Source of the DNA: a virus
Taxonomy: Duplodnaviria > Heunggongvirae > Uroviricota > Caudoviricetes
Virus record (IMG/VR): IMGVR_UViG_2554235304_000012
Length of the DNA stretch: 35,661 bases
Reading direction: 5' to 3' (one strand)
Shown: positions 332-28,034 of the stretch, in pieces
Layout: the number at the start of each line of letters is the position of its first letter
Position numbering within the stretch: the first letter of the stretch is position 1
Notes under the pieces: generated by a model
Seen by the model: only the letters and a program-made list of their open reading frames with translations
What the model was told of the DNA's origin: nothing
Databases searched by the model: none
Position numbers and translations under genes: made by a program

Positions 332-592
332 TTAATTCTGAGGTAAAGGCAAGCTCATCTGATTGTTTCCCCTGTGTGAAGCTGGCAGCTCATGCCACGG
401 GATACCTTCTGAAGAGTGGATGCCGGAGGCGTGTTTCGATGTGAATTTATGGAAAGCTTCCAGTGTTGAGAAGCATACGCCGCATTCCAGGTTGTTACAC
501 TGGTAATACTTTTGCCGCACGGTGTTTGAATCATTTTCCGGACGACTGGTGCGGATACGGGCAGATGCGCCACAAAGCGGACAACGGAACAT
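332..592 (-). CDS. ogr: Ogr-type zinc-finger late transcription activator
   Basis: MFRCPLCGASARIRTSR...YYQCNNLECGVCF matches the P2 Ogr pattern (MFHCPLC...HQCQNVNCSATF) with four Cys. Located at the prophage end opposite int, as in a P2 prophage. Confidence 0.8.
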   Translation of the reverse strand: MFRCPLCGASARIRTSRPENDSNTVRQKYYQCNNLECGVCFSTLEAFHKFTSKHASGIHSSEGIPWHELPASHRGNNQMSLPLPQN

Positions 593-741: not shown

Positions 742-1407
742 TCAATTTTTAAGAGCACTGATACAGAAAAATTGCATGACATTTTTCTTTATTGATTTAA
801 ATAAGCTAAACATTGTGACAGGTTCAAAGCTAGTTAACTCGATGAATTCCTCTCTCATTTGAGAAAGTAACAGCTGACGTACTGATTCAATTTCTGCTGT
901 TTGTTTTCTCAAATATCTTGAGAAAACAAGTAGTTCATCAGCTGTTTTGTTTTGGCCATTTATAAACGTAACAGGTTGCCCTGGCTTAGATATGAGAAAA
1001 AATTGGTTAATTTTATCAAGTAATGGTGGAATTATTTTTTTCCATTCAGCCCATTCTTTTTCACGATGAAACTCCAGACTGTGCTGACATGTTCTTAGTT
1101 GCTGTATATCAATCGCCCAGACCTCACTCTCATCGAGGCAATCTTTCCATTTGCTAATTACATTAATGTCAAATTTTTTGTTCGGTAGATAATTATCTTT
1201 GGCGTGCGCTTCCAGTATAGAGGCAAGAGTACCTGTATATTGCATCAAATTGGTAGATGCTCGGTTTACTAGCTCAGATATTCGATCTAGTTGAGTTGTT
1301 CTAATCTCAAGTGCTTTCTTTTTACGTTCATTTCGTAAAGCAAAATATGCAGCAAGGCAGACTGCAGCAACTGTGGCTGCTGGTGCGATAAAAATTTGCA
1401 TATTCAT
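742..1407 (-). CDS. Hypothetical membrane-anchored protein (about 221 aa, N-terminal TM helix), AT-rich moron
   Basis: Track ORF 742..1431. Start moved to ATG at 1407 (MNMQIFIAPAATVAAVCLAAYFAL...), which has an AGGA Shine-Dalgarno upstream. AT-rich by eye relative to flanking phage genes. AT-rich upstream region 1432-1601 and a hairpin plus T-run downstream (about 690-725). Confidence 0.6.
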   Translation of the reverse strand: MNMQIFIAPAATVAAVCLAAYFALRNERKKKALEIRTTQLDRISELVNRASTNLMQYTGTLASILEAHAKDNYLPNKKFDINVISKWKDCLDESEVWAIDIQQLRTCQHSLEFHREKEWAEWKKIIPPLLDKINQFFLISKPGQPVTFINGQNKTADELLVFSRYLRKQTAEIESVRQLLLSQMREEFIELTSFEPVTMFSLFKSIKKNVMQFFCISALKN

Positions 1408-1601
1408 AACATGGATCCTTTGACATGGCATTTATGGGGGCTATTTCAGCAGTAATCATTTGTGTGTAAATTTGTTTGCTACAAATTAACATATTCTAAT
1501 GTAAGGCTCTTCTGATTTTGACACCGGGTAGGCTGTCAGATTGGTTATGATTCTTGCTGTAAGCGCGTTAGCAAATGTCAGGGCTAATGCATCTAAGTTG
1601 T

Positions 1602-2702
1602 TTACTCTGTTTCTGCTATCCATTCCGGGATTTTGGCTTCAAGCTCAAGCTGCGTGGTAAAGCCACTGTTATCAATGGTGTGCTCGGCTTTTGCAATGAT
1701 CCAGTCCTGATTATCAATCTCGCTTTTAAATCCTGTTACCGTGCCATGCATTTCGGGGTAGAGTTCTGCTCGTCCACGTGCCAGCGTGATGGAAAATGAT
1801 GCGGCTCCGCGTTGTAGCTGCTGCCATTTTGCCGCCGCTGCGCGTCTTGCTGCCTGCTCGTTCTGATAAGTTTTGCGTAACACAAACACGTTGCCTTCCG
1901 CACCTTCCATATAGTCACCTTCACGGCTGCTGCTTTTCTCTTTTTTCGGTTTGCGGCGTTTCACGCTGACTTTTTTCTTTTTCCCGTAATTAAGATCAAG
2001 CCAGTAGGCGCGTACACCCGTATACGCCTCGCGGTCAGCAATGCGGAACTGATGGCGATCGCCGCTGCTGCGTGTGATGGCGAACGATGGCAACGGCTGG
2101 CCCAGTGCGTTCACGCGACCGCCTGGCATGATGAATAACAGATTACCGCTTTTTACCGTGGTGATTGCGCCCAGCATTTCCGCCATGCGCGTAAGGAAGG
2201 ACATGTCGCTTTCTTCGGTCTGGTCGGCGTGGTCGATTTCGATATCCATCAGTATTTCGCTGATTTGCGGTTTCAGACCGTACCGATGAGCGATGGCAGA
2301 TACCACGCGCTCAACGGTCACATCATGCCAGGACACCTCACGTTTAACGTTAAATTCATCCCGAAAATCTGCGCTTCTGGCTGAAACAGTCAGCCTGTCC
2401 GGCGGTCCTTCGTGAGCGATTTCATCAACAATGTAAGTGCCTTTTTCTGTCAGCGGTTCTCCTTTCCAGCCAATGAGAACCGTCAGGCGCGCGCCCCGTG
2501 GCGGTAGCTGCAACTGACCATCCGCATCATCCAGCGTGATGGTGAGCTGGTCCGCCTCAAATCCCCGGTTGTCGGTCAGTGACAGGCTCATCAGGCGCTC
2601 TGCCACGCCTGACAGCGTTTTACCCTCCGCGAGAATATCAAAATCCGGCATTTTCACGGGGTCTGTGCCCTGACTGAGCAATTGCATGGTGGTATCGGTC
2701 AT
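1602..2702 (-). CDS. D: Tail protein D (late control gene D family)
   Basis: Track ORF 1602..2834. Product matches the P2 gpD family over its length. Start is ambiguous (ATG at 2702, 2687 or upstream); 2702 chosen. Confidence 0.8.
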   Translation of the reverse strand: MTDTTMQLLSQGTDPVKMPDFDILAEGKTLSGVAERLMSLSLTDNRGFEADQLTITLDDADGQLQLPPRGARLTVLIGWKGEPLTEKGTYIVDEIAHEGPPDRLTVSARSADFRDEFNVKREVSWHDVTVERVVSAIAHRYGLKPQISEILMDIEIDHADQTEESDMSFLTRMAEMLGAITTVKSGNLLFIMPGGRVNALGQPLPSFAITRSSGDRHQFRIADREAYTGVRAYWLDLNYGKKKKVSVKRRKPKKEKSSSREGDYMEGAEGNVFVLRKTYQNEQAARRAAAAKWQQLQRGAASFSITLARGRAELYPEMHGTVTGFKSEIDNQDWIIAKAEHTIDNSGFTTQLELEAKIPEWIAETE

Positions 2703-2859
2703 CTGTTCCCTCCCTGTGCGGCATGGTCGCATGTGCGTGCGGAGGGGGTTACTGCTTTTTGTTGTCGCCGGGTCGGGAGAACGGCGCAGGGGTGAGATTA
2801 CGCGCGTGGTGGGTGATGATTGTTGCCGAATCATTTTACGGATACAAGGGGCTGAAGCT
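2703..2859. promoter_or_regulatory. Divergent intergenic region between D (-) and FI (+); presumed late promoter(s)
   Basis: 157-bp non-coding gap between two divergently oriented late genes. No Ogr-box consensus found by eye. Confidence 0.3.
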
Positions 2860-4044
2860 ATGAGTGAAACTCGTTTTCATGGTGCCCGTGTTACGGAAAA
2901 TACCGACCTGGTAACAGCGATTAATGATGTTGATTCCAGTGTTATCGGTATCGTGGCAACGGCGGATGATGCGGACGCGAAGCTGTTCCCGCTGAACAAG
3001 CCCACACTGCTGACCCGCGTCAATGACGTGCTGGGAAAATGCGGGACAACGGGGACGCTTTATCGTGCGCTTAAGGCTATCGCAGACCAGGTGAGCACAA
3101 AGGTGATCGTCGTTCGCGTGGCTGAACACAAAGAAGAAGACGGAAAGACGCAGGATCAACTGGTTATCGGTGGTTCTGAATCTGACGGCAGCTATACGGG
3201 GATGTATGCGCTGCTTGTTGCAGAGCAGGATGAAAGCATCGGATACCGTCCGCGTATTCTGGCCGCGCCGGAGCTGGACACGGAGGCGGTGACAAAATCC
3301 CTGTGCGTGATTGCGGGTAAACTGCGCGCGTTTGTGTATGCCTCATGTCATGGCTGTGACACGATGGCTGATGCGATTACCTACCGCCAGAAATTCAACG
3401 AACGTGAGGTGATGCTCTTATGGCCGGACTTCATCGCCTACAACCCGAAAAGTGGCAAAAACGAAACGTTCCCCGCGCCTGCCTATGCGTGCGGCCTTCG
3501 TGCGTACATTGACCATGAGCAGGGCTGGCACAAATCACTGTCCAACGTTCCGGTTAAAAATGTGCTGGGGATGTCGAGGCATGTGTTCTGGTCGTTGCAG
3601 GCCGAAGACAGCGATGCCAACAGCCTCAACAACAAAGAAATCACGACCATTATTCGTCGCAACGGGTTCCGCTTCTGGGGCAACCGCACACCGGAAACGA
3701 ACGCCTACATCTTTGAGGTGTATACCCGAACCGCACAGGTGCTGGCTGATTCAATTGCGGAAGCGCAGTTTGAAACCATCGACAGTCCACTGACGCCTGC
3801 GAACGTGAAGGATGTTATCAGTGCCATCAGGGCAAAACTGGATTCACTGGTGACTGCCGGGAAACTGATTGGCGCGGAGTGCTGGTATGACGTGGTGGAT
3901 AACAGCACCACGGATTTACGTCAGGGGCGTGTGCGTATTCGCTACAAATATACGCCCGTTCCGCCACTGGAAGACATGGAGCTTTACCAGACGTTTACTG
4001 ATGAATACTTTGAACCCGCATTTGCGGTGCTGGGAGGTGCCTGA
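2860..4044 (+). CDS. FI: Tail sheath protein FI
   Basis: MSETRFHGARV...SDADAKLFPLNKP...QGWHK.LSNV...IRRNGFRFWGNRT...YTPVPPLE aligns by eye with P2 FI. ATG at 2860 follows GGGGCTGAAGCT. Stop overlaps the FII start (ATGA-type coupling). Confidence 0.9.
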   Translation: MSETRFHGARVTENTDLVTAINDVDSSVIGIVATADDADAKLFPLNKPTLLTRVNDVLGKCGTTGTLYRALKAIADQVSTKVIVVRVAEHKEEDGKTQDQLVIGGSESDGSYTGMYALLVAEQDESIGYRPRILAAPELDTEAVTKSLCVIAGKLRAFVYASCHGCDTMADAITYRQKFNEREVMLLWPDFIAYNPKSGKNETFPAPAYACGLRAYIDHEQGWHKSLSNVPVKNVLGMSRHVFWSLQAEDSDANSLNNKEITTIIRRNGFRFWGNRTPETNAYIFEVYTRTAQVLADSIAEAQFETIDSPLTPANVKDVISAIRAKLDSLVTAGKLIGAECWYDVVDNSTTDLRQGRVRIRYKYTPVPPLEDMELYQTFTDEYFEPAFAVLGGA

Positions 4045-4556
4045 TGGCTGTGCCAAAACATCTTCGCTTTTTTACGCTGTTTGTGGATGGTGAAAACGAA
4101 GTGGGTAAGGTGACGTCCGTCACCCTGCCTAAGCTGACGCGCAAAACCGACAGCTACCGGGGTGGTGGCATGATGGGGGCGGTAAGTATTGATCTCGGTC
4201 TGGACGACTCCGCGCTTGATGCGAGCTTTGTCATGGGGGGCGCAGTTCGTGAGCTGTTCCTTAAGTATGGCGGCACGATTGACGGCACGCTGCTGCGTTT
4301 TGCGGGTGAATATTACACCGATGCAGAAAGCGACCTGTATGAAGTCGAAATGCGCGGACGTGTGACGGAAATTGATATGGGGGAAGCCAAACAGGGCGAA
4401 GCCACATCACACACTTACGCCATTAAAAACACCTACTACAAGCTGAGTGTTAACGATCGTCCGTTGTGGGAGATTGACCTGCTGAACTTCATTTACCGGA
4501 AGGACGGCAAGGACATTGTGCCCGATCGCATCCGTTCCGCGCTCGGGCTTGGCTGA
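4044..4556 (+). CDS. FII: Tail tube protein FII
   Basis: MAVPKHLRFFTLFVDGENEVGKVTSVTLPKLTRKTDSYRGGG resembles P2 FII (..SVTLPKLTRK..YRGAG..). About 170 aa. Confidence 0.9.
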   Translation: MAVPKHLRFFTLFVDGENEVGKVTSVTLPKLTRKTDSYRGGGMMGAVSIDLGLDDSALDASFVMGGAVRELFLKYGGTIDGTLLRFAGEYYTDAESDLYEVEMRGRVTEIDMGEAKQGEATSHTYAIKNTYYKLSVNDRPLWEIDLLNFIYRKDGKDIVPDRIRSALGLG

Positions 4557-4611
4557 TAAGTAATATGCAGGCGGCGCAGTGCGTCGCCTCTGACTGAAAA
4601 GGAGACAACTG

Positions 4612-4986
4612 ATGAAAAATATCGATACTGAAACCCGGAATAACACCGTAGCGGATGATGTGACGGCAGGTGAGGATATGGCTGTCGAACGTGGTGTAAA
4701 ACTTTCCCGGCCAATTGAGCGTGGTGCCGAAAAAATCACATATGTGGAGATCACCGGGGCTATTGAGCAGGCGGGATCCCTGCGTGGTCTGTCGCTGTCT
4801 GATGTGCTGAATCTGAAAGCGGATACCATGTTCACGCTGTTGCCTCGCGTGACCTCGCCACAACTGGATGAAGTGATGATTAAAAAAATGTCGTCACGCG
4901 ATTTTATTCAGTTGTGCGCTGTGGCTGTAAATTTTATGAGCGAGCCAGACTCTGGCGCGAAGAGCGTGCAGGAGACGGCAGCGTAA
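4612..4986 (+). CDS. E: Tail assembly chaperone E (zero-frame product)
   Basis: Position between FII and T. AAGGAG Shine-Dalgarno before the ATG at 4612. Contains an A7 slippery run at 4882-4888. Confidence 0.7.
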   Translation: MKNIDTETRNNTVADDVTAGEDMAVERGVKLSRPIERGAEKITYVEITGAIEQAGSLRGLSLSDVLNLKADTMFTLLPRVTSPQLDEVMIKKMSSRDFIQLCAVAVNFMSEPDSGAKSVQETAA

Positions 4987-5150
4987 TCACCCTGGTGTGC
5001 TTTGAGCACATCGAAGATCTGGTGGCGGATATTGCCACCATTTTTAACTGGTCGCCCGCCGAAATCTTCATGATGACTCCCGGCGAAGTGGTTAGCTGGC
5101 GTGAGCGGGCGGCACTTCGCAGCGGGAATACAGACAATGAAGACTCTTGA
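4612..5150 (+). CDS. E+E' fusion from a programmed -1 ribosomal frameshift at the A7 run 4882-4888
   Basis: The -1 frame is open from 4884 to the stop at 5150 and overlaps the start of T, as for P2 E/E' and lambda G/GT. Confidence 0.5.
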
Positions 5151-7944
5151 TATCCGGGTCGCTTTCAGCGCCGTTGACAGGCTGACCCGGCCTGCCGAAA
5201 ACGCCCGCCGCCTGATGGGGCAGTTTGGTGACTCCATCCAGCGAACGCAGGGGGCGATCAAAAATCTCGAGCGTCAGGCGCGTTCATTTGAGCGCGCCCG
5301 TGACGCTGTCAGTAAAGCGGATGCTGGCATATTGAAAGCACGACGCCAGCTTAACGCTCTTAATCAGTTACAACGCACGGGTACAGTGCTCAGCGAAAAA
5401 CAACAAAAGCTGATGCAGCAGTTAAGCACCCGGCTTGAACGCCTGAATGAATCGCGCACACGGGAAATTCAGAAAATGCGGGAACTTGGCGGAGAGCTGA
5501 AACGCCACGGCATTTCCCTGACAGGCAGCGATAACACCATCCAGCAGGCCATCAGACGCACCGAACAGTACAACAACCAGCTTGAACGCGAACGGCAGGC
5601 GCTTGCGCGTGTAACGCGGGCGCGTGAGCGGTATTCGCGCGCGCAGGAAACCGCGGGAAAACTGAAAACAGGTGGTGCGCTGGCAATTGGTGCGGCAGCG
5701 GCGGGCGGCTATGCTGCCGGGCGTTTTTTGCAGCCCGCGATCGGGTTCGGCAAAGAGATGTCCCGCGTTCAGGCGCTGACGCGAATCGACCAGAACAGCC
5801 CGCAGTTTAAGGCGCTGCGTGAGCAGGCGTTAAAACTTGGCTCTGAAACGCAGTTCACCGCAGGCGATGCCGCCAGTGGGCAGGCATTTCTTGCAATGGC
5901 TGGCTTCACACCGCAGGCCATTCAGGCTGCGCTTCCCGGAGTGCTGAGCATGGCAACGGCTGGCGGTATGGATCTCGGCGAGACGGCAGATATTGGCTCA
6001 AATATCCTGACGCAGTTCGGCCTTTCTGCTGACCAGATGGACCGGGTCGGTGACACACTCACCGCAGCGTTTACCCGTACCAACACTGACCTTCGCGCAC
6101 TGGGCGAAACCATGAAATATGCAGGTCCGGTGGCGGGTAAGCTGGGAATATCGCTGGAGCAGGCCGCAGCGATGGCTGGCGTGCTGGCGAATATGGGCAT
6201 CAGAGGGAGTGATGCCGGGACGGCAATGCGTGCCAGCCTGGCTCGTCTGGCATCACCGCCAAAGGCGGCGGCAGAAGCTCTGAAAGAGCTGGGCGTGTCC
6301 GTCTCGGATGCCGGGGGCAAAATGCGCCCGATGGAGGATGTGCTGGCCGACCTTTATAAAGCCACCCGCAAATACGGGGAAGTTGACCGGGTATCGTTCT
6401 TTAAGGACATTGCCGGAGAAGAGGCTTTCACATCGTTTATGGCGCTCGTTGATGCAGCGGGTGACGGTTCCTTACCCAAACTGAGAAAAGAACTTGAAGG
6501 CGCGCGCGGTGAGGCTGAACGCACAGCAAAGGTTATGGCCAACAACCTTGACGGCGATCTGAAATCACTCGGCAGTGCATGGGAAGGGTTGCGCATCCGC
6601 ATTGCAGATCTGATTGACGGTCCGCTGCGTTCTGTCACGCAGTGGCTCACGCGGGTGGTATCAAGGGTGACGGCGCTGGCGCAGGCCCATCCGGCACTGA
6701 CGCGCCAGCTACTGATAGCAGGCGGTGCGTTGCTGGCAATGACTGCAACGGTTGGCTCGTTGTCGCTGGCTATTGGTGTGCTTGCTGGTCCGCTGGCAAA
6801 ACTGCGTCTTGGTTTTTCTCTCCTGACCGGATCAATGAATGCTGTCAGGGTCCTGCCAGCACTATGGGGAATGGTGACGGGTTCCGTTTCTTTACTGGGA
6901 GGCGCTATCGGGGCGCTGTTCAGTCCGGTTGGTCTTATCGTGGCTGCACTTGCCGGAGCTGCCGTTCTTATCTGGAAATACTGGGATCCCATCAGGGCAT
7001 TTTTTGCCGGGGTGTTCAGCGGGATTATGGAAAGGCTGGCCCCGTTGCGCGAAACCTTTGAACGGTTTGGTCCTGTTTTTGACGCAATCGGAAGCGGGAT
7101 CAGCCAGGTGTTTAACTGGTTTAAATCGCTGCTGTCACCGATGGAGTCCAGCAAGGAAACGCTGGATAAATGTACCAGTGCTGGCGAGATATTCGGTAAC
7201 GTTCTTGGCGGTGCGTTACAACTTGTTCTGACGCCTGCAAAAATGCTACTGGATACGCTGGCGTGGATACTTGAAAAACTTGGCGTCCTTCCGGATGAAG
7301 CGGAAAGGGCGCGCAAGAAAATCGAAGACGCACAGCGTGCGGCCATTCTTCAGGACAAGGTTGCCTTGCTTCAGGGGGACCTGGCGAAAATCAATCCGCC
7401 GAAGCCTGTGGAAAATGGCAATGGCACCGGAGGTGATAAACCCAAAGACAACAAACCGCTCACAGACAGCAATACCGGTACGCTACGCAGACTCAGCAAA
7501 ATTGCTGATAACACAGGTAAGCTGGTTGATGAGACGAAAAAACGCATTGGCCCCGGCGATATTGTCTTTAAGAATCTGCCCCGCGCACTTGCTGTTCGTG
7601 GGGAGTGGCAGGAGCGGAAGATTGCGCAGGTCAGTAAGCCTGCTTCCGCAATCAACATCACACCCGTGGTCCCGACTCCTCTGCCTCCGGCGCTGGTCCC
7701 TGTTGTTGCGGCCAGCTCCCGCCCGGTGGCGGAGGCCATACGATCGCCAGTGGCATCAGTTCCTGCAACTTCCCGTAACCGGGAGCCTGTTGTCTCCGGA
7801 TTTGGCGGTGAAATTCATGTTCATCTGCATAACGTTGTTACGCAGAATCCCCGCAAACTGGCGAAACTGGTCGGTGAAATGGTCAGGGCAGAATTGGAAC
7901 GACGCGACCGTGCCGGACGTGGCAGTTTTTACGATAAAGATTGA
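5137..7944 (+). CDS. T: Tail tape-measure protein T
   Basis: About 935-aa protein with a coiled-coil-rich N-terminus and Gly/Ala-rich hydrophobic central segments typical of tape-measure proteins. Sits between E/E' and U. Start taken at ATG 5137; the track begins at GTG 5101. Confidence 0.85.
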   Translation: MKTLDIRVAFSAVDRLTRPAENARRLMGQFGDSIQRTQGAIKNLERQARSFERARDAVSKADAGILKARRQLNALNQLQRTGTVLSEKQQKLMQQLSTRLERLNESRTREIQKMRELGGELKRHGISLTGSDNTIQQAIRRTEQYNNQLERERQALARVTRARERYSRAQETAGKLKTGGALAIGAAAAGGYAAGRFLQPAIGFGKEMSRVQALTRIDQNSPQFKALREQALKLGSETQFTAGDAASGQAFLAMAGFTPQAIQAALPGVLSMATAGGMDLGETADIGSNILTQFGLSADQMDRVGDTLTAAFTRTNTDLRALGETMKYAGPVAGKLGISLEQAAAMAGVLANMGIRGSDAGTAMRASLARLASPPKAAAEALKELGVSVSDAGGKMRPMEDVLADLYKATRKYGEVDRVSFFKDIAGEEAFTSFMALVDAAGDGSLPKLRKELEGARGEAERTAKVMANNLDGDLKSLGSAWEGLRIRIADLIDGPLRSVTQWLTRVVSRVTALAQAHPALTRQLLIAGGALLAMTATVGSLSLAIGVLAGPLAKLRLGFSLLTGSMNAVRVLPALWGMVTGSVSLLGGAIGALFSPVGLIVAALAGAAVLIWKYWDPIRAFFAGVFSGIMERLAPLRETFERFGPVFDAIGSGISQVFNWFKSLLSPMESSKETLDKCTSAGEIFGNVLGGALQLVLTPAKMLLDTLAWILEKLGVLPDEAERARKKIEDAQRAAILQDKVALLQGDLAKINPPKPVENGNGTGGDKPKDNKPLTDSNTGTLRRLSKIADNTGKLVDETKKRIGPGDIVFKNLPRALAVRGEWQERKIAQVSKPASAINITPVVPTPLPPALVPVVAASSRPVAEAIRSPVASVPATSRNREPVVSGFGGEIHVHLHNVVTQNPRKLAKLVGEMVRAELERRDRAGRGSFYDKD

Positions 7945-7950
7945 GGAGTC

Positions 7951-8445
7951 ATGGCCATGATGATGATCTACGGCATGTTTGTTTTTGAGCTGCGCACATT
8001 GCCGCATCAGCAGTTACAGCAAAACAAAAGCTGGCGGCATGTGAAAAATGAACGCGTTAACCGTTCAGCAAGCTGGCAGTATATCGGCGCAGGTGATGAT
8101 CGCATCGTGCTTTCCGGCGTGCTTTATCCTGAAATTACAGGTGGCGAAGTGTCGCTTTCGTTGCTGACCACGCAGGCATATACAGGACGCCCCTGGCCTC
8201 TGATTGATGGTGTCGGGCAGATTTACGGCATGTATGTACTGACTGAAACGAATACGACCCGTTCCGAGTTTGATCGCTACGGTAAGGCGAAAAAGATAGA
8301 ATTTTCACTGACTCTTGAACGCTGTGATGAGGATTTGCGGGAGCGCCTGCAATCCTCATCGTTCAGTGATATGCTGTCCGGCTTCAAAGATAAGGTCACA
8401 TCATCCCTTAACAGCGCGGCCAGCTCCGTTAAAGGGCTGTTTTGA
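7951..8445 (+). CDS. U: Tail protein U
   Basis: ..SWRH..N.R....S..WQ.IGAGDD.I.L.GVL.PEITGG..SL..L......WPLIDG.G.I.GM.V.......SE......KIEFSL.L.R.DED aligns with P2 gpU. Confidence 0.85.
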   Translation: MAMMMIYGMFVFELRTLPHQQLQQNKSWRHVKNERVNRSASWQYIGAGDDRIVLSGVLYPEITGGEVSLSLLTTQAYTGRPWPLIDGVGQIYGMYVLTETNTTRSEFDRYGKAKKIEFSLTLERCDEDLRERLQSSSFSDMLSGFKDKVTSSLNSAASSVKGLF

Positions 8446-8453
8446 TTAACGCA

Positions 8454-8488
8454 AAACCGCTAATGGTCAGATTAGCGGTTTTTATTTT
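8454..8488 (+). terminator. Rho-independent terminator after the FI-U operon (also abuts the 3' end of the invertase gene)
   Basis: Perfect 11-bp stem AAACCGCTAAT / ATTAGCGGTTT with loop GGTCAG, followed by TTTTATTTT. Confidence 0.55.
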
Positions 8489-9071
8489 CCTGAGTCTGCC
8501 TGGTTGTTTCTTCAGCCTGTATATCGCCTACAGGGTGATAACGATAAATCGTCGATATGCCGATGTCGTAAATGATCGCCAGTTGTTTCCTGTCATGACC
8601 GTTTTTAATCAGCCTCGCTATTTGCTCGTGTTGTTCTTTTGTCAACTTCGGGCGACGTCCGCCAATGCGTCCTTGTGCGCGTGCTGCTGCCAGCCCGGCC
8701 AGTGTACGCTCTACAATTAATTCACGTTCCATTTCGGCTAAAGCCCCCATGACGTGAAAAAAGAAACGCCCCATGGGTGTTGATGTGTCAATGCTGTCCG
8801 TCAGACTACGGAAATTAACACCTTTTTCCCGCAATTCCTCAATAAGCGTGATCAGGTGTTTCATACTTCTGCCCAGTCTGTCCAGCTTCCAGACAACCAG
8901 CGTATCTCCTTCTGATAGCGTTCTGAGCAGTTTTTTCAATCCCGGTCTGGCTGATTTCGTTCCGCTGATTTTATCTTCAAAAATCAGTTCACATCCTGCG
9001 CAGTTCAGTGCATTGCGTTGTAAATCCGTGTTCTGGTCATTTGTTGACACACGAATATAGCCAATTTGCAT
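8472..9071 (-). CDS. Cin/Gin/Hin-family serine DNA invertase
   Basis: MQIGYIRVSTNDQNTDLQRNAL..GCELIFEDKISG...RPGLKKLLR.L..GDTLVVWKLDRLGRSMKHL..LIEELRE.G.NFRSLTDSIDTSTPMGRFFFHVMGALAEMERELIVERT.AGL..ARAQGRIGGRRPKLT is near-identical in pattern to P1 Cin / Mu Gin as remembered. Start set to ATG 9071 (AGAGGA Shine-Dalgarno at correct spacing). Confidence 0.9.
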   Translation of the reverse strand: MQIGYIRVSTNDQNTDLQRNALNCAGCELIFEDKISGTKSARPGLKKLLRTLSEGDTLVVWKLDRLGRSMKHLITLIEELREKGVNFRSLTDSIDTSTPMGRFFFHVMGALAEMERELIVERTLAGLAAARAQGRIGGRRPKLTKEQHEQIARLIKNGHDRKQLAIIYDIGISTIYRYHPVGDIQAEETTRQTQENKNR

Positions 9072-9125
9072 AAAAAACATCCTCTTTGTTTCGTGAAAAA
9101 TACAGAGTTGGTATAGGTAGGGATA

Positions 9126-9151
9126 AAAACGAAAACGTTGGTTTGGGGGAA
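9126..9151. repeat. hix/cix-like recombination site 1 (centre TT at 9138-9139)
   Basis: CGAAAACG-TT-GGTTTGGGGGAA. Homology to the other two copies begins exactly here. Confidence 0.5.
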
Positions 9152-9571
9152 GGCTCTGCACTGCCCGTTGGTGTGCCCGTTCCGTGGTCCTCAGCAACAC
9201 CACCAACGGGCTGGCTGAAATGTAACGGTGCAGCATTTTCTTCTGAAATGTATCCCAGACTGGCAAGGGCTTATCCCACCAATAAATTACCGGATTTACG
9301 CGGTGAATTTATCCGTGGCTGGGATGATGGGCGCGGGATTGATGCGGGACGTACCCTGCTTTCAGGGCAGGATGGTACAAGTTTTTCTCATTACGGAGGT
9401 AATTTCGACATTGGGTCTGGTCATTCAATCAATAACTATGACCAAATTGTTTCTAACCAACCAGGCTTTTCCCGTTTTTCATTTGCAGGGCCTTCACGAG
9501 GTGATGGGGTTAATTATGTAACCATTCGTCCTCGTAATATTACGTTTAATTACATCGTAAGGGCAGCATGA
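9139..9571 (+). CDS. Promoterless alternative tail-fibre C-terminal cassette 1 (silent orientation)
   Basis: The translation (within track ORF 9086..9571) shares GLGEGSALPVGVPVPW..ATPPTGWLKCNGAAFSSE.YP.LA.AYPTNKLPDLRGEFIRGWDDGRGIDA and the C-terminal PRNI.FNYIVRAA with the H C-terminus, but has a different middle region. Confidence 0.6.
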
Positions 9572-9590
9572 AAACGTTGGTTTGGGGGAA
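9565..9590. repeat. hix/cix-like recombination site 2 (centre TT at 9577-9578)
   Basis: GCATGAAAACG-TT-GGTTTGGGGGAA. Same core as site 1, in direct orientation to it. Confidence 0.5.
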
Positions 9591-10040
9591 GGCTCTGCAC
9601 TGCCCGTTGGTGTACCTGTTCCGTGGCCCTCAGCCACACCGCCAGCAGGGTGGCTGAAATGTAACGGTGCAGCATTTTCTTCTGAAATGTACCCAAAACT
9701 GGCAAAGGCCTACCCCACCAATAAATTACCGGATTTACGCGGTGAATTTATCCGTGGCTGGGATGATGGGCGCGGGGTGGATGCCGGAAGGGGCATCTTA
9801 AGCATGCAGGGGTGGTTAACAGGAAGTCATTATCATAATATTCGGTCATGGGATGCGTGGGATAACACGGTGTTGGTGCCAAATGACAAAGGAGGGGATA
9901 GTCTGTTGTCGACAGATAACGCCGTCCGGCAAGGTGCAATTAACGGTAGATTTACCAGTCAATACAGAACGGAATCCTCAGAGGGGAATGAAACCCACCC
10001 ACGCAATATTGCCTTCAATTATATTGTGAGAACCGCATAA
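9578..10040 (+). CDS. Promoterless alternative tail-fibre C-terminal cassette 2 (silent orientation)
   Basis: Track ORF 9582..10040. Shares the conserved junction sequence and C-terminal RPRNIAFNYIVR.A with H, with a distinct central receptor-binding region. Confidence 0.6.
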
Positions 10041-10651
10041 TGAATAACGCGATATTAAATGATGACCTTATTGCCGTACAGGCAGGAAACATCGTCGTTT
10101 ATAACTATGATGGTGAGACACGGGAATATATTTCCGAATCAACTGAATATCTTGCTGTGGGTGTCGGTATTCCGGCAAATTCCTGTTTAGATGCCCCGGG
10201 CGCACATAAAGCGGGCTATGCTATCCGCCGTTCGGAGAATTTAAGCTCATGGGAGTATGCGCCAGACCATCGTGGTGAAACCGTCTATAGCACTGACACG
10301 GGAAACACCGAAGAAATCACGGCGCTGGGTGACTACCCGAAAAATACAACCACTATCGCCCCGTTAACACCATACGATAAATGGGATGGTGAAAAATGGG
10401 TGACAGATACTGAGGCACAACATCGTGCTGCAGTAGAAGCGGCAGAAACCAAGCGCCAGTCACTGGCTGATGCGGCAATGGCTTCCATAAGTCTGATTCA
10501 GTTGAAGTTGCAGGCCGGGCGGAAGTTGACGCAGGCAGAAACCACCCGGCTTAATGCCGTGCTGGATTATATAGACGCGCTGAACGCAATGGATATAAAC
10601 ATGGCACCAGATATCAACTTGCCGGAAATACCACTGGCAGCAGCCAGTTGA
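10040..10651 (+). CDS. Tail fibre assembly chaperone (Tfa / Mu U / P2 G-like)
   Basis: 203 aa with ...WVTDTEAQHRAAVEAAETKRQSLADAAM..ISLIQLKLQAGRKLTQAETTRLNAVLDYIDALNAMD, typical of the Tfa C-terminal region. Start overlaps the cassette 2 stop. Convergent with H. Confidence 0.8.
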   Translation: MNNAILNDDLIAVQAGNIVVYNYDGETREYISESTEYLAVGVGIPANSCLDAPGAHKAGYAIRRSENLSSWEYAPDHRGETVYSTDTGNTEEITALGDYPKNTTTIAPLTPYDKWDGEKWVTDTEAQHRAAVEAAETKRQSLADAAMASISLIQLKLQAGRKLTQAETTRLNAVLDYIDALNAMDINMAPDINLPEIPLAAAS

Positions 10652-10657
10652 ATATAA

Positions 10658-12271
10658 CTAAGCCGCCCTCACGATATAGTTAAATGCAATATTGCGGGGG
10701 CGGGTTTCACTACCACCTGTGTTACCAATACTTCCTCGTGAATGAAGCGTTGGTGATGGAATCAAACTCCCTCCTGTATTTGTGGCATCAAGCCCCCTGC
10801 CTTGCGTATATGTTTTTTTGAAAATCGTGGCCAACTCCCATTCATCCTTTGTGTCATATCCATCGTTAGCTACAACAATATGGCGGTGTTTTTCCAACAT
10901 CCCGTTTTGAATGCTCAATAAAGCGCGTGCCGCATCAATTCCTCGCCCATCATCCCAGCCACGGATAAATTCACCGCGTAAGTCTGGTAATTTATTGGTG
11001 GGGTAAGCCCTTGCCAGTTTTGGGTACTTTTCAGAAGAAAATGCTGCGCCGTTACATTTCAGCCATCCCGTTGGCGGCGTGGCTGAGGGCCATGGAACGG
11101 GCACACCAACGGGCAGTGCAGAGCCTTCCCCCAAACCAAGGTAATCAAGAACTCCCTGAGTGCTGGTTTTACCAAGAATGGCACGTCCAACACTTGTCAA
11201 CGCGGTTAACGCGGCACGATCTGCCCCTGTAAAATATGGGAGTTTATCTGCTGATGTAGCAAGCTCTGCCAGCGCCGTCAGGGTGGCATCCTTCGGTTGC
11301 TTACCCGCAAGCGCGTTAGTCATGGTGGTCGCAAAATTCGGGTCATTGCCCAGCGCCGCAGCCAGTTCGTTCAGCGTGTTCAGTGCATCAGGTGACGAAT
11401 CTACAAGTGCGGCAATCGCGGCCATAACGAAAGCCGTGCTTGCGATCTGGGTACTATTAGTCCCCTGTGGCGCTGTTGGTGTTGTTGGCGTTCCGGTCAG
11501 TGCCGGGCTGTTTAATGGTGCTTTCTTGTTCGTTTCATCCATTACCGCCTTAACAGCTTTTGGTGTCGCTGCCAGCGTTTCAGACGTGCTGTTCGTGGCG
11601 CTACTGAGCTGAACAATTCCTTTTTGTGTAGTGGTGGCGTTCTGGGCGGTATATTTCCCGTTAGCCAGGTCATATGCAGCCTTAACCGCTTTCGGTGTTG
11701 CGGCCAGTGTTTCTGATTCACTGTTAATTGCACTGCTTAACTGAGTAAAACCTTTTACGGTCAGCGAGGCGTCCGGGTGACGTCGTGACTGTTCGTGCTC
11801 TGAGATTTTATCATCCACATATTTGCGGGTTGCCAGAACCACAGACGGGTCGATTTTCAGCGTGATGGCTTCGGTGTTCGTGACAACCAGAATCATGCGG
11901 ATAGTCTGGGTGCGTCCACTGCCTTCCTGCAACTGCGGTTTGTACGTTTCCGGGCAGTTTGCCACCGCAATGAGTACACCTTCATCATCATAAAGACCAA
12001 TCTCACGGATCCAGAATCCTCCCTCGTTTTCAGGGATGATTTGCTCCGCAATAATCTGGCTCTGATTGTTAGGGTCAACACTCAGAAGATTCAGCGGTGC
12101 AATGCGTTTCTGGTTAATCAGTTTTGTTTGTGCAGGGTCTGGTGTTGGTAACACACCATTTGCATCACCAACGGCCATTTGCGTCAGATTCAGCTTACTG
12201 CCGAGCATCGTCGCGTTAGCCAGTCGTGCCGCGCCCTGATTAGTCAGAATGGCGTAGTATTTCACTGTCAT
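10658..12271 (-). CDS. H: Tail fibre protein H (P2 H-like constant N-terminus fused to variable C-terminal segment)
   Basis: N-terminal about 380 aa align with P2 H (..ELVIPPE.GGFW.RE.GLYDD.G.LIAVAN..E.YKP...EGSGR.QT.RM.I..; SETLAATPKAVKAAYDLANGKYTAQ repeat). The C-terminal 159 aa start at the hix-like site. Confidence 0.85.
   Translation of the reverse strand: MTVKYYAILTNQGAARLANATMLGSKLNLTQMAVGDANGVLPTPDPAQTKLINQKRIAPLNLLSVDPNNQSQIIAEQIIPENEGGFWIREIGLYDDEGVLIAVANCPETYKPQLQEGSGRTQTIRMILVVTNTEAITLKIDPSVVLATRKYVDDKISEHEQSRRHPDASLTVKGFTQLSSAINSESETLAATPKAVKAAYDLANGKYTAQNATTTQKGIVQLSSATNSTSETLAATPKAVKAVMDETNKKAPLNSPALTGTPTTPTAPQGTNSTQIASTAFVMAAIAALVDSSPDALNTLNELAAALGNDPNFATTMTNALAGKQPKDATLTALAELATSADKLPYFTGADRAALTALTSVGRAILGKTSTQGVLDYLGLGEGSALPVGVPVPWPSATPPTGWLKCNGAAFSSEKYPKLARAYPTNKLPDLRGEFIRGWDDGRGIDAARALLSIQNGMLEKHRHIVVANDGYDTKDEWELATIFKKTYTQGRGLDATNTGGSLIPSPTLHSRGSIGNTGGSETRPRNIAFNYIVRAA
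11126..11151. repeat. hix/cix-like recombination site 3 inside H, inverted relative to sites 1 and 2 (centre at 11138-11139)
   Basis: Minus-strand reading is TTCTTGATTACC-TT-GGTTTGGGGGAA, very close to hixL TTCTTGAAAACC-AA-GGTTTTTGATAA as remembered. Confidence 0.55.
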
Positions 12272-20600: not shown

Positions 20601-20754
20601 AGTTTTTGCCCCTCTGACTGGTTCTTCAGTCATGATGGCAAAGCGTAACAGGCTGATACAAAGGGCTTTTGTTGTAAGAAAACGGCCAGAACAGGGGGTT
20701 AAGGAGAACAGTTTCGCGCGCGGGTAATCTTCCTGTAATTACTCAGGGGGAGCA
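20601..20754. promoter_or_regulatory. Divergent intergenic region between O (-) and P (+); presumed late promoters
   Basis: 154-bp gap between divergent late operons, as in P2 PO/PP. No Ogr box verified. Confidence 0.35.
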
Positions 20755-24056: not shown

Positions 24057-26261
24057 TTACGTGTCGAGAGAAATTTGTGTGCGCAGTTGAATAGGATTCA
24101 GAATTGTATATCGCTGGCGAATAACATTATATAAATCAAAGTCTTTTACCCTTACGCTTATTACCATCGCATATTGCATATCAGGGGCTGAAACTCCCTT
24201 AACATGGCGCGAAGAATCTCGGGCATGATACCGTATATCAAAAACTGGATCGCTTAATAATGTATCAGCACTGAACTTTTTGCTTCTGTGCAAACAAGTT
24301 TCCCACTTATGACCTTCACTCCTACACTCCCTTTCAGTCTTATACTGGCTTTTTTGACCAAAGAAATCATCTGTATCGGTATCGTCAAGGCCGAATCTTG
24401 GGCGGAAAGTTACCTGCATACCGGCCCTTGTATAGTTTACTGAATGTTCAGGATCTACTGGGGTTTGAATGCATAAAGTAGCGGTAAGCTCAAATGCTTC
24501 GTCAAAGGGAACATCAGGGAATGGGATCGGTGCCCTTAAATATTTATTTTTTGCTAATGAACCATAGTAAATTACTGTAGCAGTATCATTTGGACAATCG
24601 ATTAAAACGTTAGGATCCTCACTAAACCGTCCCCAACCGATATGTTCACGCGAATATTTTCTTGATGTTTCAGCATGATGAACAAGCAACGCTTTCAATG
24701 CAATGGTGTTCAATGGAGTTCCTGATAGAGCCGCAACTCCAGCGGCCGTTCTCAATGCTAATGGAGAGGCATAACTGGTTCCTTGAACTCCAACTATAGA
24801 ACCAAGCAGAGGGTTGTAAGTGTAAAAAGGCTCGTCGTCGCTTCCACCAAAAATAACACCATCAGGTTTAACGAATCCGGGGCTTCTGCCTGGCCCAATA
24901 CAGCTATATGGTGCCCGCCCCCATTTTTCACCGCTACGATCAGCAGCACCAATCGCTAGCGCGTTTACCATATCGGAAGGAGGTTGTATTCTCGCTGCAT
25001 CACCGTCCTCATTGCCATCATTCCCAACAGCAACAGTAAGTAATATCCCATGCTTAGCACAGATTTGGTCTAAAACAGCAGTCCATACATGAACCTCATC
25101 ATCACCAATTGGAAGATGAGGACCAATACTTAGATTAGCGAACTTATAGTCACCACTATCAAGAACGGACTGTATTTTCTTAAGGACATCAAATAAATCC
25201 CAATTGCCATTGTCACCTGATGTCGGTGAAAGAACTCTATAATGATCTACATTCATAAACGGTCTTTTAAAAGAAGGTGCATTTTCCTCGACACGTCCGA
25301 ATAAGAAAGTGGATGTCACTTCATTACCGTGCTGCAATAATAATCCGCTTGTTTCTTTGGTGTCTGGATACACGTATTCCGTAACCCAATTACTCAAGTC
25401 AGCTGTCCCCAAGCCACCATCAAAAATGGCAATACGTTCGGATTCAAGAACAGCTTTAGAATTAGGGAGCTCCGGTGTAACTATATTAGATAACTTTCTG
25501 ACAATGTTCGGCTGAGTACACCTGAGAGACGGCATCGGCCGCACAACGCGGATTAATGAAAAATCGAGTGTTTTTTTCATATCTTCAGGTCGCGCGTGTG
25601 CAACGATGAAAGTCAGCCCACCAACTTGGATTCTACTTTTGTAATCAACAGAGACATCATATTGTGCCGCATAGCTAATATAGGCTTTAACGATATCATC
25701 GTCTTCAACCCCAGCATGAAGAACCACTTCAAATTTTATCAAATCACTTTTCGCATGCTCAAAATTGCGTGCTCTCTCTTTTCCTTCAAAAAAGCTAACA
25801 CTTTCAATTTCGATCAAATCCTTTTGTACGCCCTTCGGAGCTGTAGGGGAATTTAAAATTTCCTTAAATCTTATAACGGCATCATCATCACCGCTAACAA
25901 ACAGTTGCGCCGTTACTAAGTCCTTATTCTGATCGCACTGACGTGCCGCTTTCCGTGGGCGAATGATTACCTGACGGCTGCCGACATCCCGTAAACCTGT
26001 CGCTCTAAGCAATCCTTCCGGAAAGTAGCTTTTACCCAAAAACGCTGGGTGTAAAGTTAAATTGAATACACTCTCCCCCCTTGGCTTAGCCGCATCATCC
26101 AAACTGCGAAAGCGTGAGAGTAAAGTATCAATCTCTGGGTTTAAATGCTCCCTTACTTCTTCAAGAGTATAGGGATAGCGCTTACCATCCCTTCCTTTAG
26201 GCAAAGGTTCCTTTTTTGTCAGAACATGACCGTTACCTAAAAGTAAGTTCCTTTCCATCAT
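24057..26261 (-). CDS. Subtilisin-like serine peptidase (S8 family), 734 aa; IetS-like
   Basis: Asp box IAIFDGGLG, oxyanion-hole region VAVGNDGNEDG and Ser box GTSYASPLALRTAAG in S8 order. Start overlaps the upstream ATPase stop by 4 nt. AT-rich by eye. Confidence 0.85.
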   Translation of the reverse strand: MMERNLLLGNGHVLTKKEPLPKGRDGKRYPYTLEEVREHLNPEIDTLLSRFRSLDDAAKPRGESVFNLTLHPAFLGKSYFPEGLLRATGLRDVGSRQVIIRPRKAARQCDQNKDLVTAQLFVSGDDDAVIRFKEILNSPTAPKGVQKDLIEIESVSFFEGKERARNFEHAKSDLIKFEVVLHAGVEDDDIVKAYISYAAQYDVSVDYKSRIQVGGLTFIVAHARPEDMKKTLDFSLIRVVRPMPSLRCTQPNIVRKLSNIVTPELPNSKAVLESERIAIFDGGLGTADLSNWVTEYVYPDTKETSGLLLQHGNEVTSTFLFGRVEENAPSFKRPFMNVDHYRVLSPTSGDNGNWDLFDVLKKIQSVLDSGDYKFANLSIGPHLPIGDDEVHVWTAVLDQICAKHGILLTVAVGNDGNEDGDAARIQPPSDMVNALAIGAADRSGEKWGRAPYSCIGPGRSPGFVKPDGVIFGGSDDEPFYTYNPLLGSIVGVQGTSYASPLALRTAAGVAALSGTPLNTIALKALLVHHAETSRKYSREHIGWGRFSEDPNVLIDCPNDTATVIYYGSLAKNKYLRAPIPFPDVPFDEAFELTATLCIQTPVDPEHSVNYTRAGMQVTFRPRFGLDDTDTDDFFGQKSQYKTERECRSEGHKWETCLHRSKKFSADTLLSDPVFDIRYHARDSSRHVKGVSAPDMQYAMVISVRVKDFDLYNVIRQRYTILNPIQLRTQISLDT

Positions 26262-27340
26262 TTAATCCCCCACTTTTGTAATTTATTCGCGATTGTTGGA
26301 TGTGAAACACCAACTAATTCAGCTATCTTCCTATTTGAAAAACCGTCAAAATGATATTTAATTATATTGAGATCATTATCGCTAAACTCATCCAATGAAA
26401 CCCTCTCCGTAATTACGGCTTCTATTAATGAGCTTTCAAATGGAATATTTCTAAGTACCTCATTCTTTTTGGAGAAATTCAAAATACGGTTAATGATGGC
26501 AAAGGACATGCCATCTAATAATGGTGCAAGTTTTTTAGATAGTTCAGGTTCAATATTATGATTGACTAAATATCTATCTATCAGTTCTACTGATGGCATA
26601 TTAAATTTAAGGATGTGCTCAAATCGACGCCAAACAGCCGGATCTAAGATATCAGGGTGATTAGTCGCAGCAACAAGAAGCGAGGTCGCTGGCCACTCAT
26701 CTATGGTCTGTAGGAGTACAGTAACTAAACGTTTTAATTCTCCAACGTCCCTGTCATCATCACGTCTTTTTGCAACAGCATCAAATTCATCAAGCAAAAG
26801 GACACATGGTTTCTCTTTGGCATAATCCATAACGGATTTAATATTATTACCTGTTTTTCCCAAAAGAGAACTCATTACAGATGAGAGATCCAATGTTAAA
26901 AGAGGTAAATTTAACTTTGCAGCAAGCCAATGTGCGGACATTGTTTTGCCTACGCCTGGCGGGCCAGAAAGTAAAACCGTCTTCACAGGTTCAAGACCAG
27001 CTTTGAACAAAGAAACCGCATTCTCTCTTTCGTTAACAATTGACTCCAGCTTCTTTGAGATATCCGTATTCCATACAGGTTCTTCAACAATTGCGTTGAC
27101 AGATGTTTCCTGCAAAAGGTTTCGTCTGGAGTCTCCATCCACAGGCATAGGAGCCTTACTAGATGCCCCACGTAATACTGTTCCCTCAGCAACTAACGAA
27201 GCCAGCTTAGAAGCTAAAGCCTCATCATTTTTACGGATGTTGTTAATCATCTTTCTGCATAGGAGTGTAAATGCATTTGCGTTGCCTTTGATGCCTTGCT
27301 CGATGAGTTTGAAAAGTTCATCCTCCCTCACGTTTACCAT
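26258..27340 (-). CDS. AAA+ ATPase with C-terminal helix-turn-helix, 360 aa; IetA-like
   Basis: Walker A GPPGVGKT, Walker B VLLLDEFD, sensor/SRH region LLVAATNHPDILDPAVWRRF, and a C-terminal HTH NRKIAELVGVSHPTIANKLQKWGI. Confidence 0.85.
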   Translation of the reverse strand: MVNVREDELFKLIEQGIKGNANAFTLLCRKMINNIRKNDEALASKLASLVAEGTVLRGASSKAPMPVDGDSRRNLLQETSVNAIVEEPVWNTDISKKLESIVNERENAVSLFKAGLEPVKTVLLSGPPGVGKTMSAHWLAAKLNLPLLTLDLSSVMSSLLGKTGNNIKSVMDYAKEKPCVLLLDEFDAVAKRRDDDRDVGELKRLVTVLLQTIDEWPATSLLVAATNHPDILDPAVWRRFEHILKFNMPSVELIDRYLVNHNIEPELSKKLAPLLDGMSFAIINRILNFSKKNEVLRNIPFESSLIEAVITERVSLDEFSDNDLNIIKYHFDGFSNRKIAELVGVSHPTIANKLQKWGIK

Positions 27341-27718: not shown

Positions 27719-28030
27719 TTATTCAGGAAATAACGCCCGGATATTTCCGGCCATCTGACTGGTTATCTGTGCGGTTGATACTGGCTGTGACGCGGGGCGT
27801 TCTGTCTTGGTTTGTGTCACTGATAACACCTCATCATCAGCCCATGCAGCCAGTCGGTAAGCCTCTGCCGGATTCATTTTCAGAAGTGCCAGCCCGGCCA
27901 GAAAAGCCACGCGTTGGCCGCTTTTGCGGGCTTCTGGTGTAAGGCTGTCCAGCCAGGCGCATGCTTCTCCTTCGTTCTTGACGGCGGTGGGCTTCAGATA
28001 GAAACTTATCCGTCTGGTTGGAGTCGTCAT
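27719..28030 (-). CDS. parR: ParR-like centromere-binding adaptor (putative)
   Basis: 103 aa from ATG 28030 with AAGGAG Shine-Dalgarno, immediately downstream of parM as in R1 parMR. N-terminal RISFYL.P ... LDSLTPEARKSGQRVAFLAGLAL weakly resembles R1 ParR (RTIAFKL.P...LDSIPQGERSRLNRAALTAGLAL). Confidence 0.6.
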   Translation of the reverse strand: MTTPTRRISFYLKPTAVKNEGEACAWLDSLTPEARKSGQRVAFLAGLALLKMNPAEAYRLAAWADDEVLSVTQTKTERPASQPVSTAQITSQMAGNIRALFPE

Positions 28031-28034
28031 TGGT

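Follow-up and report, generated by a model that had tools for sequence, protein, structure and literature searches.

The canonical counterpart of this locus is the F operon of P2, 186 and Fels-2, in which FI-FII-E-E'-T-U-D-ogr lie under the promoter P_F. In P2-type, Fels-2 and ENT90 records, the order H ... FI FII E T U D ogr occupies a single strand throughout, with 33–114 nt between the end of the U match and the start of the D match in canonical loci, and a P2 structure preprint (2026), the source of the roles given here to gpD (hub) and U (tube initiator), describes tail gene order as conserved among the phages examined there. Late promoters of P2 have the consensus TGT-N12-ACA and are Ogr-dependent (PMC3931495). 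Two other systems invite comparison: the P2-type divergent P_P/P_O region, which controls the head and packaging genes and for which a single site has been proposed to serve both promoters in Smp131 (PMC3931495), and the Mu G, P1 C and e14 P segments (Gin, Cin and Pin), which hold alternative fibre tips. The nearest relatives are P88 and other Xuanwuvirus (Shae_phiSM, also PhiSM; P884B11; 500465-2; PhiR44_2), where ogr and D on the minus strand are followed by FI-U on the plus strand, a minus-strand invertase gene, and the tail-fibre genes through to V on the minus strand.

The stretch of DNA that was analysed (35,661 nt; hereafter the window) is a P88-like (Xuanwuvirus) P2-family prophage of E. 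coli E2348/69 sited between ihfA and btuC, and RefSeq annotation was available for the identical E2348/69 sequence. ORF layout, Pfam and RefSeq placed FI-FII-E/E'-T-U on the plus strand (2860–8445), with D and the V-H cluster on the minus strand (Table 1), bearing out an earlier note on this DNA that had described FI-U as inverted relative to P2 order. The block is limited by the 157-bp D/FI gap on one side and a hairpin terminator on the other. The gene content of the canonical F operon (FI, FII, E/E', T, U, D) is complete and, as in P2, 186 and Fels-2, the internal order is kept, with an E/E' frameshift pair (A7 run at 4882–4888; -1 frame open over 4884–5150), an Ogr-type box ~80 nt upstream of FI, and D followed on its own strand by an intact ogr. 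A Pfam search with a partial ogr ORF (355–573) returned no match; the full ORF (332–592) matched Ogr_Delta. Unlike in those phages, D does not follow U on a common strand: it stands upstream of FI on the opposite strand, outside the FI-U transcription unit and needing its own promoter, and FI-U converges on the V-H cluster rather than following it. The canonical records being all on one strand, the FI-U block of the window is inverted in place relative to them, and protein identity to P2, 186 and Fels-2 is only ~46–54%.

Table 1. Coordinates of the features discussed, as positions in the window.
Feature	Position	Strand	Basis or remark
ogr-like late activator	332–592	-	Ogr/Delta zinc finger CX2C-X24-CX4C; Pfam PF04606 (E = 5e-14); RefSeq
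Hypothetical cargo gene, AT-rich, between D and ogr	742–1407	-	RefSeq; Pfam search without match
D, baseplate hub, divergent from FI	1602–2702	-	Pfam PF05954; 99% identical to P88 D
D/FI control region, divergent, 157 bp	2703–2859	.	Sequence; clade-wide conservation
Extended -10-like TG-n-GACCAT, putative D promoter	2723–2731	-	Hexamer centre 46 nt from dyad centre
Ogr-type dyad TGTTGT-N12-AGAACG, putative late-activator site	2760–2783	.	Centre 2771.5
-10-like hexamer GATGAT, putative FI promoter	2815–2820	+	46 nt from dyad centre
FI, tail sheath	2860–4044	+	Pfam PF04984, PF22671, PF17482
FII, tail tube	4044–4556	+	Pfam PF04985
E, tail chaperone	4612–4986	+	RefSeq annotation
E/E', -1 frame extension of E to 5150	4612–5150	+	PF06528 on 4995–5150
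T, tape measure	5137–7944	+	Pfam PF10145
U, tube initiator	7951/7957–8445	+	Pfam PF06995
Bidirectional hairpin terminator, common to convergent U and invertase genes	8453–8482	.	
Serine DNA invertase	8472–9059/9071	-	Pfam PF00239, PF02796
Tail-fibre shufflon	9126–11151	.	Crossover sites 9126–9151, 9565–9590, 11126–11151
H, I, J, W, V	from 10658 upward	-	ORF layout, RefSeq
Second dyad copy, divergent O/P late region	20670–20693	.	TGTTGT-N12-AGAACA

Compared with P88 and the other Xuanwuvirus, the window was 94–96% identical over 1593–9066, with the same 157-bp gap and the same dyad. The differences lie in the cargo (the hypothetical gene between D and ogr; S8 peptidase/AAA ATPase), in the tail-fibre cassettes and the invertase allele (82–87% amino-acid identity), and in the copy here being an integrated prophage. 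Over positions 1–25000, 81% of the window was covered by P88 at 95.7% identity (~78% identity × coverage), where the ICTV genus level was taken as ~70% identity × coverage over the genome; by the similarity of positions 1–25000 and by shared gene order, the prophage belongs to Xuanwuvirus. P88 and Shae_phiSM are isolated, plaque-forming, functional phages with a layout identical to that of the prophage. The earlier note had proposed a synteny comparison with P2-like relatives and held that an arrangement shared by related functional phages would be simply lineage-typical, which it therefore is.

The inverted layout was also found in Novemvirus phiT5282H, Senquatrovirus SEN5, Reginaelenavirus 3LV2017, Reipivirus ST16-OXA48phi5.4 and Serratia KSP20, and spans five Peduoviridae genera in addition to KSP20. 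Among GTDB species representatives, all 61 loci with D at 61–98% identity were inverted, and the remaining 19 loci (D, 48–53% identity) were canonical, or truncated but consistent with the canonical order; in IMG/VR, 80 of 80 loci were inverted. The D/FI junction, present in roughly one in four complete E. coli genomes, was intact and collinear in 1,356 of the 1,380 in which it occurs, and the opposite FI-U orientation was absent from the 61 GTDB and 80 IMG/VR loci. The earlier note had also raised an assembly artefact, in which a 5.7-kb block was misoriented during genome assembly. No evidence for one was found, the suggestion having arisen only from the departure from P2 order, and the probability left to it is negligible: the order recurs in independent complete E2348/69 assemblies, in those 1,356 complete E. 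coli genomes, in the virion-derived genomes of P88, Shae_phiSM and KSP20, and in another 141 inverted loci taken from other collections, and no flanking repeats able to mislead an assembler are present. The inverted layout is instead the ordinary, fixed gene order of a large P2-like branch that includes working phages.

Neighbour-joining trees of D, FI and U (unrooted, and drawn without support values) each contained a single branch parting all inverted from all canonical loci, which fits one ancient inversion. Median identities between inverted and canonical loci were 51% for D, 51% for FI and 46% for U, and in none of the three did identity exceed 59%. It is thus very likely that the FI-U block and the late promoter belonging to it inverted once, in the phage from which a large Enterobacterales branch of Peduoviridae descends, and that the inversion has been fixed since, leaving the order in E2348/69 normal for its lineage. 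Xuanwuvirus, Novemvirus, Senquatrovirus, Reginaelenavirus, Reipivirus and KSP20 all belong to this branch. Of the readings offered in the earlier note, an ancient fixed rearrangement and a lineage-specific layout amount here to the same thing, and this is the one that holds, every relative with a D at least 61% identical being inverted. A different origin, in which FI-U was taken from another phage lineage and entered in reverse orientation without any inversion in place, would suit the mosaic nature of P2-like tail modules, the rearranged tail operons reported for example in Smp131 (PMC3931495) and the variable module boundary just downstream of U. This replacement is improbable, however: the split by layout is shared by D, FI and U, whose divergence is similar, as it should be had the inverted genes and those flanking them diverged in step, the spacing from box to FI is unchanged, and no closer donor lineage for FI or U occurred among 540 phage records.

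A single inversion in place is therefore retained. The finding itself is biology already known. Literature searches yielded no paper explicitly describing a clade-wide inversion or a D/FI control region, and the claim of a single event accordingly rests on the present survey; the P88 paper mentions neither gene order, nor orientation, nor inversion. In practice, a D gene divergent from FI serves as a simple synteny marker that separates the large Enterobacterales Peduoviridae branch from the P2/186/Fels-2 branch.

A Gin/Cin/Hin-type invertase encoded next to the block could in principle have produced this orientation, either through ongoing phase variation or through an old event at a secondary site, and the serine invertase gene (8472–9071) does abut the right border. 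The three real crossover sites, all in the adjacent tail-fibre shufflon, were used to make a position weight matrix. The real sites scored 30–34 bits, compared to at most 6.7 bits at 2600–2960 and at most 5.8 bits at 8350–8600, and the two border zones shared no inverted 9-mer, in agreement with the earlier note, which had seen no hix-like sequence at either junction. Hix-like sites were restricted to the shufflon. A 16-nt inverted match joins the 5' end of FI (2872–2887) to the flank of crossover site B (9561–9576) and was considered as a pseudo-crossover, but a 14-kb sequence should contain approximately two such 16-mers by chance, the match lies within conserved FI coding sequence, and inversion there predicts borders other than those observed. 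Most inverted loci, including SEN5, 3LV2017, phiT5282H and ST16phi5.4, have no invertase, whereas Fels-2, ENT90, P2-magyaro and L079 carry one next to FI and keep the canonical order; the invertase of canonical phages is the same, and the earlier view that the arrangement is not a Cin product stands. Between E2348/69 assemblies only 9577–11139 flips, and a published read-level screen of E2348/69 (Goldberg 2014, Table S1) lists fim, Mu and two P2-type tail-fibre loci as the only inverting sites, with FI-U not among them. An origin through the invertase, though a shade less remote than misassembly, is thus extremely unlikely.

The invertase acts on the tail-fibre shufflon and not on FI-U. The shufflon is active and of the same kind as the Mu G, P1 C and e14 P segments, whereas FI-U lacks crossover sites, is larger by a factor of three, was found in no alternative orientation and holds essential structural genes. 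The shufflon also serves as a built-in reference for the effects of the invertase in this prophage. A false alarm is thereby removed, with neither misassembly nor cryptic invertase action on essential tail genes.

The earlier note had also placed the promoters of the FI-U module in the 157-bp gap between D and FI, a proposal supported by a conserved dyad of the Ogr type, which would mark a late promoter there. An exact search of the window for TGT-N12-ACA returned five sites, fewer than expected by chance and none in the late gaps, and was replaced by an extended dyad that is found in both gaps and in relatives. In the window, the exact dyad pattern was confined to the D/FI and O/P gaps. Across the clade, the conserved dyad TGTTGT-N12-A(C/G)A(A/C)C lies at the place expected for P_F (TGT-N12-ACA near -55), although the window copy is degenerate, with AGA rather than ACA. 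The distance from the box to the FI ATG downstream is 78–89 nt in inverted loci and 76–86 nt in canonical phages. On the FI side, the clade alignment contained a conserved GATGAT/GATTAT/GAATAT block followed by GAACTCA; on the D side, a TGn(A/G)A(T/C)CAT block was conserved at a fixed distance. A sigma-70 consensus scan returned no promoter in the D/FI gap; since promoters that need an activator should escape such a scan, this result is uninformative. The candidate -10 for D (GACCAT) is a weak element, and a transcript that started from it would have a leader of just ~14 nt.

Binding of the activator, the positions of the start sites and the use of one box in both directions are inferred from these sequence features. 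The inversion would have moved the P_F activator box along with FI and placed it next to D, making of the 157-bp gap a compact two-way late control region that resembles the O/P region. There, a gap of ~155 bp likewise separates divergent late operons and holds one dyad copy, GC-rich spacers and weak -10 elements, although that region controls head and packaging genes and its two-way use in the P88-like lineage is putative. With a weak -10 element 46 nt to either side of its centre, a single symmetric dyad would allow the Ogr-like zinc-finger activator to drive both directions, turning on FI-U rightward and D leftward, and read-through from D could reach the cargo gene and ogr. It is proposed tentatively, as a reading of slightly less than even likelihood, that the inversion made the one-way P_F a two-way switch and that read-through from D to ogr forms a short, direct positive-feedback transcript of hub and activator genes. 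In the inverted branch, the baseplate hub gene D would be transcribed apart from its partner U, probably from a shared two-way Ogr box. This regulatory point is modest, and the significance of the layout beyond housekeeping is small.

At the other end of the block, transcription of FI-U would stop at a hairpin that would also serve the convergent invertase gene. A terminator had been placed in the earlier note at 8454–8488; the hairpin is present but is located at 8453–8482, where a 12-bp stem is flanked by an A-run and a T-run, and the folding energies for the two strands are -15.6 and -14.7 kcal/mol.

The gene layout was established from open reading frame calls, Pfam matches and RefSeq annotation, which were concordant; the RefSeq annotation places the prophage between ihfA and btuC. 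P2-type, Fels-2 and ENT90 records carry H ... (invertase) FI FII E T U D ogr on a single strand; relative to this order, FI–U is inverted in place in the window, and the description in the earlier note is correct. Window positions 1500–9300 match E. coli E2348/69 (NZ_CP059840.2) at 100% identity and Xuanwuvirus records, among them phage P88 and Citrobacter phage Shae_phiSM, at 94–96%; over the first 25 kb, P88 matches 81% of the length at 95.7% identity. The hairpin beyond U folds on both strands (−15.6 and −14.7 kcal/mol, one per strand) and can thus terminate both convergent units.

Features of the inverted tail block and its surroundings (window coordinates)
Feature	Position	Strand	Remarks
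ogr	332–592	minus	ORF, Pfam, RefSeq
Hypothetical gene	742–1407	minus	ORF, RefSeq; no Pfam match
D	1602–2702	minus	ORF, Pfam, RefSeq
D–FI gap			157 bp, between divergent D and FI
−10-like hexamer GACCAT	2723–2728	minus	46 nt from dyad centre (2771.5)
−10-like hexamer GATGAT	2815–2820	plus	46 nt from dyad centre (2771.5)
FI	2860–4044	plus	
FII	4044–4556	plus	
E	4612–4986	plus	E' reaching 5150
T	5137–7944	plus	
U	ending 8445	plus	
Hairpin terminator	8453–8482		12-bp stem, A-run 5', T-run 3'
Invertase	8472–9071	minus	
Crossover sites (Gin/Cin/Hin-type)	9126–9151, 9565–9590, 11126–11151		last inverted
H, I, J, W, V	beyond invertase	minus	

The same FI–U layout occurs in P88, a plaque former with a burst of ~65 and a contractile tail (PMC5285337), and in Shae_phiSM, a temperate phage that forms plaques (PMC6456863), such that the synteny comparison proposed in the earlier note identifies the arrangement as typical of a lineage of functional phages. 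A tblastn search with D and FI found the two genes adjoining and in opposite orientation in Enterobacter phiT5282H (Novemvirus), Salmonella SEN4/SEN5 (Senquatrovirus), Klebsiella 3LV2017 (Reginaelenavirus), ST16-OXA48phi5.4 (Reipivirus), further Klebsiella phages, and Serratia KSP20. A 961-bp probe of the D–FI junction, searched against 5426 complete E. coli genomes, was collinear in 1356 of the 1380 that matched, about a quarter of all genomes searched. The P88 and Shae_phiSM layouts, the other phages and these junctions rule out an assembly artefact or a single-strain oddity. The prophage belongs to the P88-like group and has the gene order normal for it; its gene content is that of the P2 F operon, but D, which defines that operon by following U, does not do so here. 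No explicit statement of the FI–U inversion was found in the literature searched, and a recent preprint on the P2 structure even calls the order of the tail genes conserved in the phages that it covers; nevertheless, genomes showing the layout have been public at least since those of KSP20 and P88, making the inverted block real, explained, and ordinary.

The depth of the inversion was explored with nine aligned D proteins and 80 loci from species-representative genomes. The 61 of these with D 61–98% identical were without exception inverted, spanning Salmonella, Citrobacter, Klebsiella, Enterobacter, Kosakonia, Serratia, Erwinia, Pantoea, Brenneria, Pectobacterium, Symbiopectobacterium, Edwardsiella, Xenorhabdus, Photorhabdus, Providencia, Morganella, Yersinia, Hafnia, and other Enterobacterales, while the 19 with D 48–53% identical were canonical (14 including FI; five truncated, with T, U and D on one strand). 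IMG/VR loci with D 69–98% identical were likewise inverted (80/80). In unrooted neighbour-joining trees of D, FI, and U, built without support values, one branch splits all inverted from all canonical loci. Import of FI–U as a foreign module fits less well, as the flanking D (median identity between layouts, 51%) and the inverted FI (51%) and U (46%) have diverged to a similar degree; on these sequence comparisons, a single in-place inversion in a common ancestor fits better. A 98% identical copy of the Enterobacterales prophage region also lies on a contig assigned to Vagococcus sp., a Firmicute (NZ_JBQPOM010000071.1), probably through contamination or mislabelling of the assembly. Escherichia phages 520873 and 503458 (NC_049344.1 and NC_049341.1) contain an IS100-family (IS21-like) element within the region matching 1500–9300, have split or truncated FI matches, and are probably defective prophages.

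The neighbouring invertase acts on a shufflon of tail-fibre cassettes, and the FI–U block is not an invertible segment. Three crossover sites bound long inverted repeats within the cassettes; a matrix built from these sites scored them at 30–34 bits and found none near the FI–U borders (best, 6.7 and 5.8 bits), bearing out the earlier view that hix-like sites are missing there and that the flip is not a Cin product. Nor is any inverted 9-mer common to both borders. A genome-wide inversion screen of E2348/69 reads (Goldberg et al. 2014; Table S1, NC_011601) lists inversions at 1891695–1893703, with ends corresponding exactly to window 11139 and 9131, and 1892127–1893703, both of which correspond to this shufflon, as well as at Mu and at another locus of P2 type (the variable non-prophage fim being reported separately), and none spanning FI–U. 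Most inverted loci have no invertase, and in canonical Fels-2, ENT90, P2-magyaro, and one surveyed locus (L079) the invertase adjoins FI without inversion. Border scores, read screen, and both sets of loci rule out the invertase as the cause.

The shufflon itself (9086–11151) is active, with three alternative H C-terminal cassettes, and inversion of 9577–11139 is the sole difference between the window and NZ_CP059840.2. In the window, H (10658–12271, minus) has no same-strand tail-fibre-assembly gene downstream; that gene (10040–10651, plus) lies behind a silent cassette (9582–10040), while in NZ_CP059840.2 it directly follows H. Fibres in the window's state may be made without a co-transcribed chaperone.

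In P2, the late operons are transcribed from promoters that depend on Ogr and carry a TGT-N12-ACA dyad (PMC3931495), and the Ogr/Delta gene is intact in this phage. The exact dyad had no match inside the D–FI gap; the form TGTTGT-N12-A(C/G)A(A/C)C matched exactly twice in 35.6 kb, at 2760–2782 in this gap and 20670–20692 in the O–P gap. The D–FI dyad is conserved over 69 inverted loci, has the perfect TGT-N12-ACA form in many relatives, and supports the suggestion that the block relies on promoters in the gap. Its centre lies 78–89 nt upstream of the FI ATG, and the box of P_F, the late promoter of the FI operon, 76–86 nt upstream in canonical phages; the similar spacing suggests that the promoter moved with the block. 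Conserved blocks flank the dyad on the FI side (GATGAT/GATTAT/GAATAT, then GAACTCA) and, at fixed distance, on the D side (a GC-alternating tract and TG-n-(A/G)A(T/C)CAT). Based on the conserved dyad and its two equidistant hexamers, we propose one shared Ogr-type activator site, an only mildly new idea, that would drive FI–U rightward and D leftward, with the D transcript reading through towards ogr. The D-side −10-like element is weak, and the D leader would be only ~14 nt. An alternating GCGCGCG tract (2715–2745) between box and D-side element is conserved across the inverted loci (L004–L071), recurs in the O–P gap (20715–20723) and canonical P_F regions, and may be a promoter spacer element.

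Past the U stop codon (8446–8800) lies a variable module boundary: 621 of 1504 E. coli genomes matching a U–invertase probe extend into the window's invertase allele, and in the partial matches sampled similarity ends at that codon. Within the block, an A7 run (4882–4888), a −1 frame open over 4884–5150 that overlaps the end of E and start of T, and a Pfam GpE match (4995–5150) make 4882–5150 a likely E/E' frameshift pair, whose slippery site would differ from the T7G of P2. Elsewhere, the window carries a hok/gef toxin gene (1–141), an AT-rich insert between D and ogr encoding a 221-aa hypothetical protein and missing from P88, and, within this integrated P2-family prophage, ParM-like and plasmid-partition-like genes (27719–28994). 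Low-GC cargo (39–43% GC; 24057–27340) between the portal and replication genes comprises an S8 family peptidase (734 aa) and an AAA ATPase (360 aa), a pair also present in phiT5282H that could be defence-type cargo.
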